Counted from the first letter of the stretch, positions 191 to 8,160 are shown. The stretch is DNA of 39,249 bases from a virus (IMGVR_UViG_2869936548_000010:1-39249), one strand, 5' to 3'. Program-made: numbers and translations. The notes: generated by a model from the sequence alone, not told the origin.

Positions 191-208
191 TTTAAATCAA
201 TAAGTTAC
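145..208. repeat. attL: 64-bp direct repeat (3' part of tRNA-Thr plus 18 bp) identical to 37500-37563
   Basis: Exact repeat attcgtaatgcgaaggtcgtaggttcgactcctattatcggcaccatttaaatcaataagttac at both ends of the phage gene block; the int stop codon lies inside it. Confidence 0.85.
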
Positions 209-1365
209 CTCGCATTTAAGTAAACCACGTTCTCCTCTTGTGCCGTATTTGTGCCATTGCGACTTATAATCGCATCGATTTTGCTTGCGTGCTCGGTGAG
301 ATGCCCGGCTGAAAGGTGGGCGTATCTTTGAACCATTTCGAGAGTTTCCCATCCTCCCATCTCTTTAAGTGCAAGAAGAGAGACACCGGACTGAACCAGC
401 CAGCTTGCCCAGGTATGCCTCAGATCATGGAAGCGGAAGTTGCTAATGCCTGCCCGCTTTAACGCTCCCTTCCATGCCTTGTTGCTGTCGGTTCTCATCT
501 TCCTTACCGCTGCTGTTTTTGTTCCGTCGCTTCGGTAGGCAGGTTTGGTGTGGACAAATACCCATCTCTTATGGAGCCCCTGCTGTTTTCTTAATATCTG
601 GCATGCGGTTTCGTTAAGAGGAACTCCGATCGCATTGCCAGCTTTTGTTTCATCAGGGTGCATCCATGCCATTTTCTTATCCAGATCGACCTGTGACCAC
701 TCAAGGTCTGTAACGTTGGAACGGCGAAGGCCTGTCGTGATTGCAAACATGACCACAGGGAAGAAGTGAGGAGCAATTTCTGCAAACAGGCGCTTCGATT
801 CCTCCTCTGTAAGCCATCTGATGCGTCCATTCTTAACGCGTGGTGTTGATATTTTGGGTGCCCTGTCAAGCCATCCCCATTCAACAGCCATATTGAGAAT
901 GGCGCGAAGTATTGCCAGATGCCTCGTCTTCGTTCCTTTGCTTGCAAGCTTTGGTTTATACTCCGGCACCGGATTGCCAAGTCGCAAACACCTGTCCCGG
1001 CTCATCTCCCAGTTCAGGCGATGGCGGCGGTTTTCCATCCCGTCTACCGCCTCCATTATTTTTTCTGTTGTTATGTCAGAGAGAATGGCTTCTCTGAAGT
1101 GCAACATCCAGAACGATATAATGCTCTTGTCATCATCAATGGACTTCTTATCCGATTTCTCACGCAGCCACCGTATGCAGGCTTCCTTGAATAGCTTTTT
1201 CGGTGATTCCCCGAGATTTTTTACTCTCCACGCTTCTGCTTTCAGACGATCGTGAAGTTCTTGCGCTTGCCTTTTGTCCGATGTTTCAAGAGAGCGTCTA
1301 ACTCTTGATCCATCTGGCGCGACGAAATCGCAGTGCCACGTGCCACCGCGTAGTTTGATTGACAT
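205..1365 (-). CDS. int: Phage integrase, tyrosine recombinase (P22 Int-like)
   Basis: 386-aa ORF next to the tRNA; C-terminal catalytic region with [16 protein letters not shown] and YAHL motifs; its stop sits in the att core. Confidence 0.9.
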   Translation of the reverse strand: MSIKLRGGTWHCDFVAPDGSRVRRSLETSDKRQAQELHDRLKAEAWRVKNLGESPKKLFKEACIRWLREKSDKKSIDDDKSIISFWMLHFREAILSDITTEKIMEAVDGMENRRHRLNWEMSRDRCLRLGNPVPEYKPKLASKGTKTRHLAILRAILNMAVEWGWLDRAPKISTPRVKNGRIRWLTEEESKRLFAEIAPHFFPVVMFAITTGLRRSNVTDLEWSQVDLDKKMAWMHPDETKAGNAIGVPLNETACQILRKQQGLHKRWVFVHTKPAYRSDGTKTAAVRKMRTDSNKAWKGALKRAGISNFRFHDLRHTWASWLVQSGVSLLALKEMGGWETLEMVQRYAHLSAGHLTEHASKIDAIISRNGTNTAQEENVVYLNAR

Positions 1366-1589
1366 GCTTTAACCTCCTGCACATCAACCGCATTCACCGC
1401 GCTATTGTGTCTCACAGACTTAAGCGCCGCAATGCAGTCTGACTTGCAAATGCGATATGGGCTTTTAGGTTTATCTGGATTTATCTTTGCGGCCTGAAGT
1501 CGTCCACTTCGTATCCACTGCGTGATAGTGCCTTTGTCTACCTTCAGATACGACGCTGCCTCTTCACGAGTGAAGATTTCTTCTTCCAC
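1242..1589 (-). CDS. xis: Excisionase (Xis-like)
   Basis: 115-aa ORF immediately upstream of int and overlapping its 5' end in another frame, as in P22 xis-int; small basic DNA-binding-like protein. Confidence 0.7.
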   Translation of the reverse strand: MEEEIFTREEAASYLKVDKGTITQWIRSGRLQAAKINPDKPKSPYRICKSDCIAALKSVRHNSAVNAVDVQEVKACQSNYAVARGTAISSRQMDQELDALLKHRTKGKRKNFTIV

Positions 1590-1679
1590 CTGGAATCTCC
1601 ATTTATTGGATTGGTATTATTGCGGTAGGTCTGGATATCATTGAGCAATGAACAGGCCTCATCGAGTATGAGGCTGTGG

Positions 1680-2024
1680 TTAGTCCTTGCGTAACTCGCT
1701 AATTCTTCTGTAAGTCTCTGGTGCTTTGTTTCCGTGTATCTTCATTTCAGACTTCAACAGATCAACGAGGGAATCCCATTCGTTGAGGATGCCTTTGAAT
1801 GCCGGAACGCGCTTTGCAACCTTGTCGAATGAATCTCTGATTTCTGGGATCTGCTCAACAAGTGCAACGCATCGTCTGAAATCGGCTGCGTCATGTGGAG
1901 CGCCGAAGTGATGACCATAGATATTCTTTTTCAGTCCACATGCGATTGAGGCAAGAGTTGCGCTACTGATGCCGACATCGCCAGTCGATTGCCATTTCAA
2001 AACCTTCATAGCCAAATCTGACAT
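1680..2024 (-). CDS. Hypothetical protein (early-left accessory gene)
   Basis: Track ORF 1680..2051; start moved to ATG 2024 because GGAGA lies 6 nt upstream and the 2051 ATG sits inside a hairpin loop. Confidence 0.5.
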   Translation of the reverse strand: MSDLAMKVLKWQSTGDVGISSATLASIACGLKKNIYGHHFGAPHDAADFRRCVALVEQIPEIRDSFDKVAKRVPAFKGILNEWDSLVDLLKSEMKIHGNKAPETYRRISELRKD

Positions 2025-2044
2025 TTCTTGTCTCCAATAAAAAA

Positions 2045-2058
2045 CCGCCATCAGGCGG
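2045..2058 (-). terminator. Hairpin ccgcc-atca-ggcgg followed by a T-run on the minus strand (putative intrinsic terminator)
   Basis: Minus-strand read gccgcctgatggcgg followed by ttttttatt; lies between the zinc-ribbon gene and the 1680..2024 gene. Confidence 0.5.
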
Positions 2059-2124
2059 CTTGGTGTTCTTTCAGTTCTTCAAATCGAATATTGGTTACAT
2101 TGTTTTCATATATGAATAAATAAA

Positions 2125-2304
2125 TTAGCTTTTTTCGTTGCCTTCGCGTTCTTTATTAATTTTGACAAACTCGTTTTTACCACGCTCTCCAAATGCGTCT
2201 TTAGAGTCGTTGTATCCGCAATCGCAGCACACATAATCACCAGACCATCCACGCATTGTTTTTTCTTTTGCAATATTTCCAGAACCGCATTTTGGACAAG
2301 ACAT
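2125..2304 (-). CDS. Small zinc-ribbon protein (CxxC...CxxC)
   Basis: Track ORF 2125..2337; start moved to ATG 2304 with GGAGG 7 nt upstream; protein MSCPKCGSG...CCDCGY has two Cys pairs. Confidence 0.5.
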   Translation of the reverse strand: MSCPKCGSGNIAKEKTMRGWSGDYVCCDCGYNDSKDAFGERGKNEFVKINKEREGNEKS

Positions 2305-2400
2305 ATCACTACCTCCAAAGCATGAGTGAGATGACAACGTAACATTGATTGGAGATTAACAATAGATTGCTGATGTAAAAGATATGTATAAGCTTCGCTT

Positions 2401-3075
2401 TCAAAGTGGAGGCTCTGGTAGCGGCATCCAGTGAGTTACGTCATCCAAGATATATCCTGATAAATACGTGAAAGCTCTATATTTTTTGTAATCAATTGGA
2501 TTTGCAACCCAGTTCCAATATGCGGCCACGATTTCACCTTGACTAAATGCCAGTAACATTTTGGTGTCTTCCGGCATTCGATCACTACAGCTTATCCAAC
2601 CATCAGGAGTTACCGGAGAGTTGCCACCGGGAATATTTTCCGGAATATTTTGTTGTGCGTTTTGTGGTTGTTCGGATTTACCCTGAAGCATGGCGGCGCG
2701 GCAGGCGTTCCAGCCAGCTGTTCGCCCAAGCGCGTAAACTTCAGATGGCTCAAGATAATCAATGTCATGCCCATCCTCATCGTCGTTCTCAGGTAATGCA
2801 GCAGGTACTACCGGTACTGGCGGAGCGGCGTAGACTTCAATAATCCCATTATCAATAGGCCATTCCCCATCCTTGATGTAGTCACTTGTGCCGTCAACTT
2901 GCTGTTCTGCAATGTGGAATGCGCCAATAGGCTCTGCTTCCAGCGATGCCAGTGCAATACGCAGGGCAGCCAGGATATTCCCCTGGTAATCATCAAGCCC
3001 GAAAGGAAGCTCATCACGAACGCTTTCATAATCGTTGATAGCCTGCTGCAGCCATTCTCTTGTGATAGTGCTCAT
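2401..3075 (-). CDS. DUF551-family phage protein
   Basis: 224-aa ORF ending ...THWMPLPEPPL, the C-terminal signature I recall for DUF551; AAGGAG-type RBS; ATGA start/stop overlap with the upstream gene. Confidence 0.65.
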   Translation of the reverse strand: MSTITREWLQQAINDYESVRDELPFGLDDYQGNILAALRIALASLEAEPIGAFHIAEQQVDGTSDYIKDGEWPIDNGIIEVYAAPPVPVVPAALPENDDEDGHDIDYLEPSEVYALGRTAGWNACRAAMLQGKSEQPQNAQQNIPENIPGGNSPVTPDGWISCSDRMPEDTKMLLAFSQGEIVAAYWNWVANPIDYKKYRAFTYLSGYILDDVTHWMPLPEPPL

Positions 3076-3644
3076 GATGCCTCTCCTTTACATGCTTCGG
3101 TGACGTTTATTCCAGCGTTGTGCAGTGCCTCAAGAACCTGATGCTGCCTGTAAACCATTTCAGTGTGGTAAGGCTCGTCAAAATCGACGCGATGCAACAT
3201 GCTATAGCATTGCGGAAGCACAACCTCCCGCGCCTCCAGTTCAGCGATGCGCTTCTCTGCGGCTTCTGTTTTTCTCCTTAACGCCTCGCTACAACCATCA
3301 GCTTTTCGGATTGCTAACTCCAAGTGTTTATTCAGCGCTTCTGCGGCTTCCAGCTCAACGCGCAGCTTCCCTACCGTTAGCGCAATTTCCTCGTTCTCCT
3401 GGTCGCGGGATTTGATGTATTGCTGGTTTCTTTCCAGCTCATCCAGCAGCGCCAAGACGGTAGCGGGATTGGCTGCGGCGATGAAAGCAGCATCACGCGA
3501 TTCGTTTTCACTGAACACCATAGCTATTTGCTCATGGTTCACGCCGTCAGTGGAGTAAATCTCATCGTCGAATTCAACAGCCCACTGACCTTTCGTAGCC
3601 TTCTCTGCGGCCTCACGCAGTGCCTGGTAATTAATCTCGCTCAC
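3072..3644 (-). CDS. Ead/Ea22-like protein
   Basis: 190-aa ORF starting (GTG)[20 protein letters not shown], coiled-coil middle; AAGGAGG 6 nt upstream of the GTG. Confidence 0.6.
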
Positions 3645-3808
3645 TGGTTGCCTCCTTTACGCCACATCGCATTCAGATATTTGTTTTGATTCACTGATGG
3701 AAAAGAATTTCTCTTAAGCAATTCCTCTCTCGATGGCATTGGCTTTACGCGTTGGCGAATAATCATTTCTGCCGGAAGAATGCCGGGATTGTATGCAAGT
3801 CCTCTCAT
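3641..3808 (-). CDS. Small hypothetical protein (55 aa), not in the ORF track
   Basis: ATG at 3808 with AGAGGA 7 nt upstream; its TGA overlaps the GTG start of the Ead gene (translational coupling). Confidence 0.4.
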
Positions 3809-3824
3809 GGTAAATTCCTCTTTG

Positions 3825-4139
3825 TTAATTTATTCGTATGCCTGCTCTTTCTTCATCGAGTTTTTTTAGCTTGTATCGCATAGCTCTTACTGAATAAATT
3901 GAGCGGCAGGTTGCAATTGCTATTTCTTCTGCGGAGAACTTACCGAAAAGTGATACTTCGGCTCTTGTCCATCGTCTTCCACGAAGTCGGCTAACAATGT
4001 CAGCGCCAATCCTTGTTGCTTTCGCCATTACTGCTTTTTCAGTCCTTTCCAGTTTTTCTGCGATAACTTCAACTGGCATTGTCGCCGCTACCTCGCGCAA
4101 GAAATCGACTTCCCATTTCTCCCATGGAGTCTTTTTCAT
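3825..4139 (-). CDS. Hypothetical protein
   Basis: 104-aa ORF, tightly packed between flanking minus-strand genes. Confidence 0.5.
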
Positions 4140-4150
4140 AGGCGATACCG

Positions 4151-4633
4151 TTATTTGATAAGAAGTGAAGGTTTCCCAACTTTGAGTTGAGCACCGGGGA
4201 TATTTATTCCTGCTTTTAGTTGGTGTTTGATTGCCAGTTTGTCGGCTTTAATTGTCGTTTCGAACTCAACGTATTCAGGAGGAAGGGCGCTTGAGTCGAT
4301 GATTTCTACAGTTTCTGACGGTTTGCGGATTGTTACCTGGTGAATACCTGCTCGAATCTTTTTCTTGCCAACCATTTCAAGCGATGACGCTATATACGCC
4401 ATAATGCTGTCAATCTTATTTTGAATTACTGCGGCTCGCTCATTTAGTGACTTTGCCTCGTCCTTGAGGCGTTCAGCATAACCATATTCATTTTTAATAA
4501 TGGCAAGAAGTTGCTCTATTTTATCGGTAAATTCTCCTTCCATGCCTTCTATTGTGTCAGCAATCATCTCTGGCTCTAAATCTGAATCCATCAGCTTTGC
4601 GTATTCATTGGCTATTTCATACAGTTTGCTCAC
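4151..4633 (-). CDS. Gp157-family protein (often found beside RecT/Erf recombinases)
   Basis: Track ORF 4151..4639; likely GTG start at 4633 with GGAGG 6 nt upstream; family call from recalled similarity. Confidence 0.55.
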   Translation of the reverse strand: MSKLYEIANEYAKLMDSDLEPEMIADTIEGMEGEFTDKIEQLLAIIKNEYGYAERLKDEAKSLNERAAVIQNKIDSIMAYIASSLEMVGKKKIRAGIHQVTIRKPSETVEIIDSSALPPEYVEFETTIKADKLAIKHQLKAGINIPGAQLKVGKPSLLIK

Positions 4634-5519
4634 TGGCAACCTCCAGTTTCGCTTTGCATTCTATGTAAATGGCTTGTACGTTCTGCTGCAATTTCATTCC
4701 AGATGTCAGGCGATATGCTTCTGCAAAATATCGCTTCAAATCATCCATGTTTTCTGCCTGAGCCATTTCATCGCAAAGAAGTTGTGCTTTATCCATTATT
4801 TCCTGCTGGCGTTTCCGTTCATCTTCGCGGATATCTTCCTCTGATTTGTGCGGCATAACTGGTTCCTGATGCATACCTTCATCTTCGTTAAGCAGGTGAA
4901 TGGCATTATCCAGTCGCTGGGCTTTAGGCCAGTATTTGCTGGCGCGTTTAACTATTGTTTTACGCGCCATCTCTTCCCAGAATGTTTTCCACGGTCCATT
5001 CTTTGCCTTGCTCGTTGCTTCCACAGCTTTAATTTCTGCCAGACTCATTTCTTCAGTCAGGTAGTCACCATCTGCTGTTTTAACCGTGCAATAACCTCCA
5101 ACAATAGAGCCTCGCTCACCAAATGCGTTGTATTTGTGGGTTGGTGCTGAATCAAGGCCATTTGATTCATAGGTGTCGTTTGAGTACACCAGTTTGCATT
5201 GCCCCCACTTAATTGATCCTGTCGATTGCGCAAGATGAAGTAATCCCATGTAACTGATATCAAGGCACACCATGCCGTCGCGAGGAACCAGATAAGCCAG
5301 TTTGCTGGCCGGGTTTAAGGTGATGCCGATCGCCGCAACATTGATGATGGCGTTCTGTGCGCTGGTTGGATTTGCCAGTGCTGTTTTAGCCAGGTAATCG
5401 TTTTTCTGGAAATACTGAATTGCAAACTGGCTTTCCTTAGCCCATGTCACCGTCTGTTCAGTCAATGCTCCGCAGAATAACTGCTCCTGCTGTTTAACGA
5501 ATTCAACGATATTGCTCAT
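4617..5519 (-). CDS. recT: RecT-family single-strand annealing recombinase
   Basis: 300-aa ORF, RecT-like by recalled similarity; sits where erf lies in P22 and bet in lambda. Confidence 0.75.
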   Translation of the reverse strand: MSNIVEFVKQQEQLFCGALTEQTVTWAKESQFAIQYFQKNDYLAKTALANPTSAQNAIINVAAIGITLNPASKLAYLVPRDGMVCLDISYMGLLHLAQSTGSIKWGQCKLVYSNDTYESNGLDSAPTHKYNAFGERGSIVGGYCTVKTADGDYLTEEMSLAEIKAVEATSKAKNGPWKTFWEEMARKTIVKRASKYWPKAQRLDNAIHLLNEDEGMHQEPVMPHKSEEDIREDERKRQQEIMDKAQLLCDEMAQAENMDDLKRYFAEAYRLTSGMKLQQNVQAIYIECKAKLEVASEQTV

Positions 5520-5827
5520 GCAGCTTCTCCAAAAATGTGTCTGCGTTTGAATATTGCGAAGGCATATTCAGCCTTAACTCTTTCGGTTATTGCATCCCAG
5601 AACCATTCAGCGGCTTTTTCCTGATAGTTACAGTCATCATCTTCCAGCCAGTCGATAGCGTCCTTAGTGTGTTCATCTGGTTTATATGAGCGAAGCATTT
5701 CGCTTATTGGGTCGCAACGTTTGCAGAGGCGATCAACTTCACTGTTGATTCGTTCGTAATCATCATCGGTAAAACTTGCGATGATTTGCGATATTTCACG
5801 CTTATCATTCAGAGTCAGAATCATCAT
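5516..5827 (-). CDS. Hypothetical protein (acidic, kil/arf-position gene)
   Basis: 103-aa ORF; ATGA overlap with recT start. Confidence 0.5.
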   Translation of the reverse strand: MMILTLNDKREISQIIASFTDDDYERINSEVDRLCKRCDPISEMLRSYKPDEHTKDAIDWLEDDDCNYQEKAAEWFWDAITERVKAEYAFAIFKRRHIFGEAA

Positions 5828-6763: not shown

Positions 6764-7072
6764 TTACCTGGCTGTCAGTTGTTTTGATTTCCGGTAGCCT
6801 GCCGCGTAAAGAGCTACGTTTGGCAGGCAAATACTTCCACTGCATTCGTCGGTATTTTGGTTACGAATGTTGCCGAGTGATATTGCTTTTTCAGAAAGGA
6901 TTAAACGTTTTCTCGGGGCTTCCTGAACAGGTTCCTCACTGTCTGTGCCGAAGATCGAATCGATGATGTTGCATATAGCATCACGCTCGATAGCCAGCTT
7001 TCTGCGCCGCTCATGACGGCGAGTTTTGGCATTTCCTGCAAATGTTGATTTCCCGTACACGATTACCGTCAT
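6764..7072 (-). CDS. Antitermination protein N (P22 gene 24 type)
   Basis: Start at ATG 7072 gives MTVIVYGKSTFAGNAKTRRHERRRKLAIER; this arginine-rich motif matches the P22 N boxB-binding peptide as I recall it. Track ORF extends upstream to 7156. Confidence 0.85.
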   Translation of the reverse strand: MTVIVYGKSTFAGNAKTRRHERRRKLAIERDAICNIIDSIFGTDSEEPVQEAPRKRLILSEKAISLGNIRNQNTDECSGSICLPNVALYAAGYRKSKQLTAR

Positions 7073-7191
7073 GATATTTTCCTCATGTGAAATGGCTTTG
7101 GTGGTGATGCGCCAGGTGCTGATCTTCTGGTTGCTGTCGTTGCAGCTGCAATTCACATCACCGCCAAACCCATCTCGTTTGGTATCTGTTT

Positions 7192-7224
7192 GCGCTTTGT
7201 CAGCGCCCCATCGAAGTTAAAGAG
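7192..7224 (-). promoter_or_regulatory. nutL: boxA (GCTCTTTAA) and boxB hairpin (GCGCTGACAAAGCGC)
   Basis: Minus-strand boxB at 7192-7206 and boxA at 7216-7224, between pL and N; matches the P22 nutL boxB as recalled. Confidence 0.7.
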
Positions 7225-7271
7225 CCTGCCAATCTGTTCCGTTTGGCTTCCAGCTTCCTGCTGATGGCTAA

Positions 7272-7425: not shown

Positions 7426-8085
7426 TTAACTAAATGTCTCTTCAGGCCACTGGCTGGCGATAACTTTCCCTACTACGGAACAGCTATCATTGCATGGGAT
7501 CATTGGATATTGCGGGTTTAGTGGTTGTAGGAACACCTGACCGCTATCCCTGATCAGTTTCTTGAAGGTAAACTCGTCACCACCAAGTCTGGCTATGCAG
7601 AAATCACCTGGCTCAACAGCCTGCTCAGGGTCAACGAGAATTAACATCCCGTCAGGAAAGCTTGGCTTGGATCCTGTTGGTGCGGTCATGGAATTACCTT
7701 CAACTTCAAGCCAAAACGCACAATCACTGGCTTTTTTGGTTGTGCTGACCCATCTCTCCGCATCACCTTTGGTAAAGGTTCTAAGCTCAGGCGAGAACAT
7801 CCCGGCCTGAACATGAGAAAAAACAGGGTACTCATATTGTTTTTTAACGGGGGCAGATGAGTATTCGCCAACAGGTGAAAATGTACCGTCGTGGTTGAAT
7901 GAGACGTTATCAATACCAAGGTATTTAAACACCACACCAATCTCGTCAAGAGATGGATGACGAGATCCGCGCAACCAGTGACCAATTCCACCCTGCGTCA
8001 TACCAAGCTCTTCAGCTAACTTCTCTTGAGTTATGCCGAGTTCTTTCATTCTGGATCTAGCCAGTTCATACCATTTCATCTTCAT
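7426..8085 (-). CDS. CI-type prophage repressor (HTH plus LexA-like S24 domain)
   Basis: N-terminal HTH ([21 protein letters not shown]) and C-terminal Ser/Lys autoproteolysis motifs (GNSMTAP, FKKL). Start at ATG 8085 or 8079; track ORF runs to 8160. Confidence 0.85.
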
Positions 8086-8102
8086 ATCCTTATTATTACG
8101 CT

Positions 8103-8160
8103 CTGTACTAAAACCATCCATGCACAAGATGTATTTTTTGTTTGCATTCCAAAAGTACAT
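8103..8160. promoter_or_regulatory. OR operator region: three related 12-bp motifs
   Basis: CTGTACTAAAAC (8103), ATGTATTTTTTG (8129) and inverted CCAAAAGTACAT (8149); a similar GTGTACTTTATTG occurs in the pL spacer. Confidence 0.4.

Follow-up and report, generated by a model that had tools for sequence, protein, structure and literature searches.

Gene content and setting of the locus

Positions 1680 to 5519 of a 39,249-nucleotide (nt) viral sequence (IMGVR_UViG_2869936548_000010:1-39249, whose whole length is called the window below) carry a run of minus-strand genes that extends from the gene for the recombinase RecT towards an excisionase gene (xis). A preliminary description had listed seven small genes between these two, all of which were confirmed; each product matches a Pfam or PHROG family, all are annotated in near-identical phage or Escherichia coli records, and the remark that most of the products have no demonstrated function holds. 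In the direction of transcription, RecT (4617-5519; PF03837, E 2.5e-33) is followed by Gp157 (g7; 4151-4633, 160 amino acids (aa) from a GTG start at 4633), a 104-aa tandem helix-turn-helix (HTH) protein matching phrog_323 (g6; 3825-4139), the 55-aa DUF2737 protein that corresponds to P22 orf56 (g5; 3641-3808), a 190-aa Ead/Ea22-like protein (g4; 3072-3644), a 224-aa EaA-like protein with DUF551 at its C-terminus (g3; 2401-3075), the 59-aa four-cysteine zinc ribbon EaG (g2; 2125-2304) and, as the last gene before xis, a 114-aa, predicted all-helical protein matching phrog_1229 (g1; 1680-2024). On the other side of RecT, the gene for a 103-aa protein (orf103; 5516-5827, minus strand; phrog_3486) overlaps the RecT start via ATGA. 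We read the window, with a probability of about 80%, as a P22-like (Lederbergvirus-type) E. coli prophage at thrW, and the stretch considered here as the promoter-distal part of its early-left (pL) operon, which comprises the tail of the recombination module and the 'ea' region.

This reading is based on the similarity of the window to known phages and on the order of its early genes. The first 25 kilobases (kb) of the window are ~97% identical, across ~53% of the length, to the P22-like coliphages HZ41, Dewey and IME10. A plus-strand tRNA-Thr(CGT) gene (115-190), which is thrW, the site at which P22-like phages integrate, lies beside the integrase gene (int; 205-1365, minus strand), which is followed by xis (1242-1589, minus strand). 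At the other end of the operon are an N-type antiterminator gene (6764-7156), a pL-like promoter (7300-7272) and a gene for an S24/HTH repressor (7426-8160), all on the minus strand. The resulting order, int-xis-g1 to Gp157-RecT and on to N and the repressor, places the genes under study at the early-left 'ea' position of P22-like and lambdoid phages. Between the pL-like promoter and N (7192-7225, minus strand), a hairpin, GCGCTGACAAAGCGC, which we take to be P22 boxB, accompanies a boxA-like sequence, GCTCTTTAA; together these would form nutL. A search for CII-type promoter motifs (TTGC-N6-TTGC) found none near g1 or xis, and the number of such motifs across the window was at chance level.

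The preliminary description had the seven genes joined by ATGA or GTGA overlaps. Such overlaps were found at two of the six junctions (GTGA between g5 and g4, ATGA between g4 and g3), and the other four junctions are gaps of 11 nt (g7/g6), 16 nt (g6/g5), 96 nt (g3/g2) and 100 nt (g2/g1). RecT and Gp157 overlap by 17 nt, with a GGAGG sequence 6 nt before the Gp157 GTG at 4633, and Gp157 is read as translationally coupled to RecT. Beyond g1, a fragment of a P22-type xis, corresponding to its 5' end and non-coding, occupies positions 1640-1676 (minus strand); by eye, it is ~90% identical to P22 xis codons 3-13, and it looks like a scar of mosaic recombination. The remnant forms a hairpin (1674-1656; -11.9 kcal/mol) just 3' of g1 and ~85 nt upstream of the real xis start. 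This hairpin, which lacks a T-run, is not a terminator.

A conserved recombination block and a variable 'ea' region

Conservation was compared across 80 viral contigs whose Gp157 is at least 96% identical to that of the window, and the window's proteins were sought within 3 kb of it. RecT and g6 were matched in all 80 loci (g6 at a median identity of 100%), g5 in 78 and the 103-aa protein upstream of RecT in 75. Matches to g4 occurred in 66 loci and to g3 in 50, at median identities of 47% and 39%, respectively, and at about half-length coverage, whereas g1 was matched in about 10 loci and g2 in 2. The whole arrangement is present in one contig (L087), at 99-100% identity. In 5,426 complete E. 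coli genomes, prevalence was counted both at ≥80% coverage and as any match. The g5-g7 block was present in 296 genomes at the higher stringency and gave any match in 1,266, compared with 2 and 1,353 for this DUF551 allele and 0 and 1,300 for this Ead allele. The eaG segment (2025-2400) was found in 271 and 2,288 genomes, and g1 in 915 and 940. These counts identify g7-g6-g5 as the tail of the recombination module, kept together with RecT, and g4-g1 as a variable 'ea' region. Thus, the stretch consists of two parts, of which the recombination block is conserved and the 'ea' region is variable, and the earlier picture of one uniform, tightly coupled accessory cluster is not borne out, since only the four distal genes lie in the 'ea' region.

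The same order of recombination genes as in the window is found in phage HK140, where the corresponding proteins are 98% (orf103), 88% (RecT), 97.5% (Gp157; HK140 gp40), 99% (the 104-aa protein) and 94% (DUF2737) identical. HK140 differs in having an extra gene between the DUF2737 and 104-aa genes, another ea region, and other xis and int genes. Its module has been described as SAP-4 (RecT) plus MuGam, with no nuclease and no single-stranded DNA-binding protein (PMC12315714). In P22, the module consists of Erf and Abc2 in place of the RecT and Gp157 of the window. The 103-aa protein is also kept with RecT in Cronobacter and Serratia, and its slot is occupied by GamL (PF28165) in Klebsiella prophages and by Arf in P22. 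We considered orf103 as a GamL homologue and rejected this assignment, as it shows no similarity to the same-slot Klebsiella GamL.

Gp157 and protection of double-strand ends

Gp157 matches PF05565 over profile positions 1-162 of 162 (E 3e-36; 125 bits compared to a cut-off of 28.6) and phrog_253, which is labelled 'Mu Gam-like end protection' (E 1.2e-52). Its gene occupies the slot that holds the RecBCD antagonist of other lambdoid phages (Gam, GamL, Abc2 or Mu Gam). The anti-RecBCD gene of HK140 has been classed as 'MuGam' (PMC12315714), and Gp157 and Mu Gam are interchangeable in the same slot beside erf and sak4 in Firmicutes phages (PMC8093625). From this position and literature, end protection or an anti-RecBCD function is the most likely role of Gp157, which would protect double-strand ends or hand them over for RecT-mediated recombination. 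Anti-RecBCD functions had been proposed for the region as a whole; such a function is plausible for the pair formed by Gp157 and the Abc1-like g6 only.

Several results weigh against a relationship between Gp157 and Mu Gam. The score of Gp157 against Pfam Phage_Mu_Gam (PF07352) was 16.4 bits, compared to a cut-off of 28.3, and 4 of 26 relatives matched this family (E<0.1). Alignment of the Gp157 family to Mu Gam by hhalign was not significant, with probabilities of 1.5% for the single sequence and 0.95% for a 27-sequence alignment assembled from IMG/VR loci. Moreover, GamL and Gp157 occur together in Klebsiella relatives, where two proteins that did no more than block RecBCD would duplicate each other's function. 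In the PHROG classification, Mu Gam is in families 491 and 2205 and Gp157 in 253. The published 'Mu Gam-like' label for Gp157 was thus not confirmed by the sequence tests used here and is less secure than it seems.

These results leave room for a different role, namely that Gp157 is not a Gam- or Ku-type end binder but an accessory protein specific to RecT, for example a loader, a scaffold or a mediator; its conservation would then follow from its coupling to RecT. This alternative is a serious one, even if the odds are somewhat against it. It is consistent with the overlap of the Gp157 gene with RecT in every genus examined, with the co-occurrence with GamL in Klebsiella prophages, and with the predicted architecture of g7, in which one 68-residue helix is combined with a small beta domain. 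The sequence tests for Gam homology were all negative, and a weak fold search (monomer model, predicted template-modelling score (pTM) 0.42) gave no support for a resemblance to the Gam-like structure 2p2u or the Ku core. In contrast, the alignments of Gp157 to the Gam profile, which are below threshold, are colinear and near full-length, and the PHROG label, the published MuGam-type class (PMC12315714) and the exchange of Gp157 and Mu Gam at the same position in phages of Firmicutes (PMC8093625) all favor end protection.

The 104-aa protein and the Abc1 family

The 104-aa g6 protein contains the motif W-x2-E...IA...RS-x2-SV twice, corresponding to two HTH repeats, and the Sigma70_r4_2 family matches 10 of 16 g6 relatives. 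The phrog_323 family matches g6 (E 2.8e-20), P22 Abc1 (E 1.3e-23) and Mu gp9 (E 5.2e-29), and these three proteins align colinearly along their length. The relationship to Mu gp9 was also detected by BLASTP (E 5e-5) and by hhalign (72%). Direct comparison of g6 with P22 Abc1 counts against a common family, because BLASTP returned no alignment and hhalign gave 24%. The proteins encoded in the slot after Gp157 in other genera fill this interval. Two Serratia prophage proteins from this slot share 42% (E 7e-21) and 31% identity with g6, the Cronobacter protein is a one-repeat version, and the Klebsiella protein is a clear P22 Abc1 homologue (45% identity, E 1e-29). The match to phrog_323 shared by all three proteins, together with the same-slot intermediates in Serratia and Klebsiella, implies that g6 belongs to the Abc1 family. 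We take the slot to settle the assignment, by which g6 is a divergent tandem-HTH protein of the P22 Abc1/Mu gp9 family, and this annotation can replace the label 'hypothetical'.

The g6 protein is encoded in the recombination module in 80 of 80 loci and is interchangeable with a bona fide Abc1. It would act as a DNA-binding accessory factor of the module. Like g6, Abc1 and Mu gp9 are proteins of ~95-104 aa with two HTH repeats, and the neighbor of each gene is one for end protection or against RecBCD, namely abc2 in P22, gam in Mu and the Gp157 gene in the window. Mu differs from the window in the order of the gene relative to its partner; in the Mu locus (L006, 2483-3326), gp9 lies directly upstream of gam. 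This recurrent association of the HTH family with end-protection or anti-RecBCD genes suggests a functional pairing. Abc1 has been reported to aid recombination and not to be essential (PMC12315714), and, in a separate study, to carry an HTH, to trigger a P4-encoded cell-death response and to have a broad counter-defence phenotype (bioRxiv 10.1101/2023.04.06.535777).

Mosaic genes of the 'ea' region

The genes distal to g6 have named homologues in the P22 'ea' region. The g5 protein, at the distal end of the conserved block, matches PF10930 (E 9e-32) and is 77% identical to P22 orf56. The Ead/Ea22-like g4 protein matches PF13935 over residues 2-137 (E 4.7e-32; 111.9 bits compared to a cut-off of 27), with the N-terminal and coiled-coil signature present, and is 62% identical to P22 EaD over 56 aa; its C-terminal part is variable. 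A search of the PDB sequences with g4 (E<=1) gave only chance coiled-coil matches, and the C-terminal domain of lambda Ea22, whose structure is solved, was not matched. The g3 protein combines an EaA-like N-terminus with a DUF551 domain (PF04448, E 6e-21, residues 159-223). Its C-terminus is 43% identical to that of P22 EaA, and residues 1-47 match HK140 gp34 exactly; g3 is an intragenic mosaic. The g2 protein is 95% identical in aa sequence to P22 EaG, matches phrog_2945 (E 1.7e-31) and has the RefSeq name 'Eag protein'. The 96-nt non-coding spacer between the DUF551 gene and eaG (2305-2400, minus strand) is identical to that of P22 except for one base beside the eaG start codon, and no promoter consensus was found on the minus strand of this spacer.

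In its position between the recombination genes and xis, its strand and its operon, the region corresponds to the P22 'ea' region (eaC-eaG-eaA-eaI-eaD-eaF-eaE-orf56, from abc2 to xis), with which it shares EaG, orf56, an EaD-like and an EaA-like gene, and ~400 nt at ~97% DNA identity. It differs from P22 in that eaC is replaced by the 114-aa gene, eaI, eaF and eaE are absent, and the Ead and DUF551 genes are other mosaics. Both the named homologues and the mosaic content seen among the 80 loci and 5,426 genomes place the region with the P22-like 'ea' regions. The Ead/Ea22-like gene, the EaA-like DUF551 gene, eaG and the 114-aa gene are non-essential and shuffled both at gene boundaries and within genes.

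The Ead/Ea22-like protein shares with the lambda Ea22/exo-xis proteins the Ead_Ea22 N-terminal and coiled-coil signature and membership of a mosaic family (PMC10834534). The same study described modular Ea22 variants, among them a Shiga toxin (Stx) phage variant, V2, in which DUF551 is a portable C-terminal domain; in contrast, the Ead and DUF551 parts are encoded in the window by two genes that overlap at an ATGA. In a related prophage (L161, 3969-4724), a single 251-aa protein joins the Ead N-terminal part to this DUF551 C-terminus, which fits the modular variants of PMC10834534. Lambda Ea22 was found there to be pro-lysogenic and tetrameric. Ea22 relatives in lambda and Stx phages bias the decision towards lysogeny.

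The preliminary description placed the cluster where anti-restriction and exclusion functions are usually encoded. By this proposal, Ead, DUF551, EaG and g1 would be dedicated counter-defence or exclusion genes, acting for example against restriction, which we consider rather unlikely. The genes do belong to a hypervariable accessory stretch, of the type in which counter-defence genes are grouped (bioRxiv 10.1101/2023.04.06.535777), and the Abc1 of the neighboring P22 block has the broad counter-defence phenotype and the P4-encoded cell-death trigger noted above. In addition, relatives of g1 in Pseudomonas and Vibrio phages are encoded near genes labelled restriction alleviation or host nuclease inhibitor, and EaG gave a weak Lar-like zinc-ribbon match (E 7e-5). 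However, this match to Lar_restr_allev (PF14354) is below the Pfam cut-off (23.4 bits compared to 28.6) and competes with several generic zinc-ribbon families. No product matched a characterized anti-defence protein in Pfam, NCBIfam, PHROGs or PDB. NCBIfam gave only RecT, Xis and generic zinc-ribbon matches, PADLOC run on all products returned nothing save a weak Xis match, and PDB sequence searches with g1, g2, g3, g4, g6 and g7 gave no meaningful match. Moreover, none of these peptides is in the searched supplements of an accessory-gene screen (Nat Commun 2025), and lambda Ea22 is tied to the lysis-lysogeny decision rather than to defence. An anti-restriction or exclusion role for these genes is thus not supported, given the EaG score and the PADLOC result.

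A conserved terminator-like hairpin ahead of g1

The hairpin and T-run noted in the preliminary description just upstream of the ribosome-binding site of g1 are real. On the sense (minus) strand, the stem (2061-2042) is followed by TTTTTTATT, and the whole element, AAGCCGCC tgat GGCGGTTT, occupies 2036-2061 and ends 12 nt before the g1 start codon. Its 8-pair stem with 5 GC pairs, its 4-nt loop and the following UUUUUUAUU give it the structure of a rho-independent terminator. The fold of the sense strand (41-nt RNA; -13.4 kcal/mol, z -2.9) is stronger than that of the opposite strand (-10.2 kcal/mol, z -1.85). An Rfam scan of 1500-4800 found no RNA family.

A hairpin with a T-run is located directly before the conserved ribosome-binding site in 13 of the 13 g1-bearing loci that were compared. 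Eight of these loci have the hairpin of the window, which is exact in five and has a 1-nt change or an extra T in three. The remaining five have an unrelated hairpin B, GAACUCGC-uacg-GCGGGUUU (~-11 kcal/mol, z ~-3), and in one of them a G-to-A change turns a G-U pair into an A-U pair. That the sequence has been replaced and the structure retained argues for selection of a terminator at the spot before g1, and thus for the hairpin between eaG and g1 being a working intrinsic terminator upstream of g1, xis and int. Two records also label this sequence as a terminator. In HK140, it is annotated as rho-independent and placed on the sense strand. In P22, where the hairpin is identical, it is given to the antisense aI RNA, whose transcription it would end on the other strand; this difference in strand is a point against the proposed function.

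In the lambda pL operon, N overrides intrinsic terminators of the tL type. Like these, the element before g1 is a GC-rich hairpin followed by a U-run, upstream of xis and int in an N-antiterminated early operon, as read here from sequence alone; it differs from them in that P22 assigns the same sequence to an antisense RNA of the other strand. Further terminator-like hairpins were found lower in the pL operon. By analogy with lambda, the hairpin would stop unmodified pL transcripts, and we infer that N-modified polymerase would read through it, such that g1, xis and int would be made only as delayed-early genes.

The ~45 nt before the hairpin (2062-2106) are non-coding in the window and in P22. 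In HK140 (L002, 1521-1565), the same ~45 nt encode the C-terminus of gp31 (similar to lambdap35), with the stop codon in the hairpin loop. These nucleotides lie within the eaG segment (2025-2400), parts of which occur in 2,288 of the 5,426 E. coli genomes.

The 114-aa protein is a member of a large family

The start of g1 can be placed from the hairpin and from its homologues. As had been pointed out, the hairpin overlaps a longer start, whose ATG (2051) lies inside it. The short start, which gives 114 aa, is supported by a GGAG sequence 7 nt upstream and by the N-terminus MSDLAMKV, which is conserved in homologues of Cronobacter and Citrobacter. Moreover, the window is ~97% identical to P22 from the end of the DUF551/eaA gene, via eaG and the hairpin, to 7 nt past the g1 ATG, and past this point P22 carries the unrelated eaC in place of g1. 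This abrupt end of identity implies a mosaic joint at the start of g1.

No Pfam match to g1 was found among the three family libraries searched, and its structure model, which is confident and all-helical, has no match among solved structures. By contrast, a profile search of 1.84 billion representatives returned 2,804 matches at E<=1e-3 and 616 at E<=1e-10, so that the family comprises at least 2,804 clusters at 50% identity. Eight residues are invariant across 44 diverse members (W11, S20, P43, D45, D48, R51, C52 and W83). Longer proteins with the g1 domain were scanned with Pfam and PHROG, and the only informative partner was a CCA-adding/poly(A)-polymerase plus HD enzyme, at the C-terminus of which the g1 domain is fused. 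As read from the sequences, the domain also occurs behind N-terminal CxxC...CxxC zinc ribbons, or in tandem with itself; the fused and duplicated forms are proteins P0333, P0269, P0329, P0365 and P0238. The gene immediately upstream of g1 in the window, eaG, also codes for a zinc ribbon, as a separate protein.

Members of the family are present in 277 phage records, including Enterobacteria, Vibrio, Yersinia PY54, Pseudomonas and Arthrobacter phages. Inspection of four of these records showed the gene labelled 'hypothetical' and placed among early recombination, nuclease or integrase genes. In five other database proteins (P0015, P0017, P0032, P0037 and P0053), 40-96% of g1, at 89-99% identity, is joined to portions of unrelated early proteins, namely Ead/Ea22, Kil, Erf and a dATP/dGTP pyrophosphohydrolase-like domain. 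These proteins may be products of intragenic mosaic recombination, or chimeras of assembly or frameshift.

Together, these properties raise the speculative and, on balance, improbable idea that g1 represents a large undescribed phage family with a fold unlike solved structures, in which an invariant polar cluster (S20, D45, D48, R51 and C52) is flanked by W11 and W83. On this idea, the protein could be a small enzyme of a new kind, or a module that binds host factors or RNA and serves in counter-defence or in taking over the host. In this prophage, g1 always lies behind a terminator, so that its expression would be limited to antiterminated transcripts that also carry xis and int. An autonomous 'moron', transcribed on its own from the repressed prophage and bracketed by the upstream terminator, would suit the hairpin immediately before g1, the separate mobility of the cassette with its mosaic joint at the start codon, and its frequency in E. 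coli prophages, yet we rejected it as very improbable, because the ~12 nt between the U-run and the g1 ATG leave no space for a promoter, no sigma-70 consensus is present on the minus strand at 2025-2124, no T-run terminator follows g1 (the hairpin at 1674-1656 being the xis remnant), and g1 is co-oriented with xis and int and reads straight into both.

Significance

The stretch is an ordinary, already-deposited P22-like early-left region, whose layout matches the modules described for P22- and HK140-type phages. Every gene already has an annotation in phage and E. coli records, which number in the hundreds, and the cluster as such adds little. What is refined here is the split between the recombination block and the 'ea' region, the assignment of g6 to the Abc1 family, the limited grounds for calling Gp157 Gam-like, the conservation of the probable terminator ahead of g1, and the size of the g1 family. 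The g1 family is the only part of the region with real potential for novelty, and it is a reasonable target for screens of phage accessory genes.

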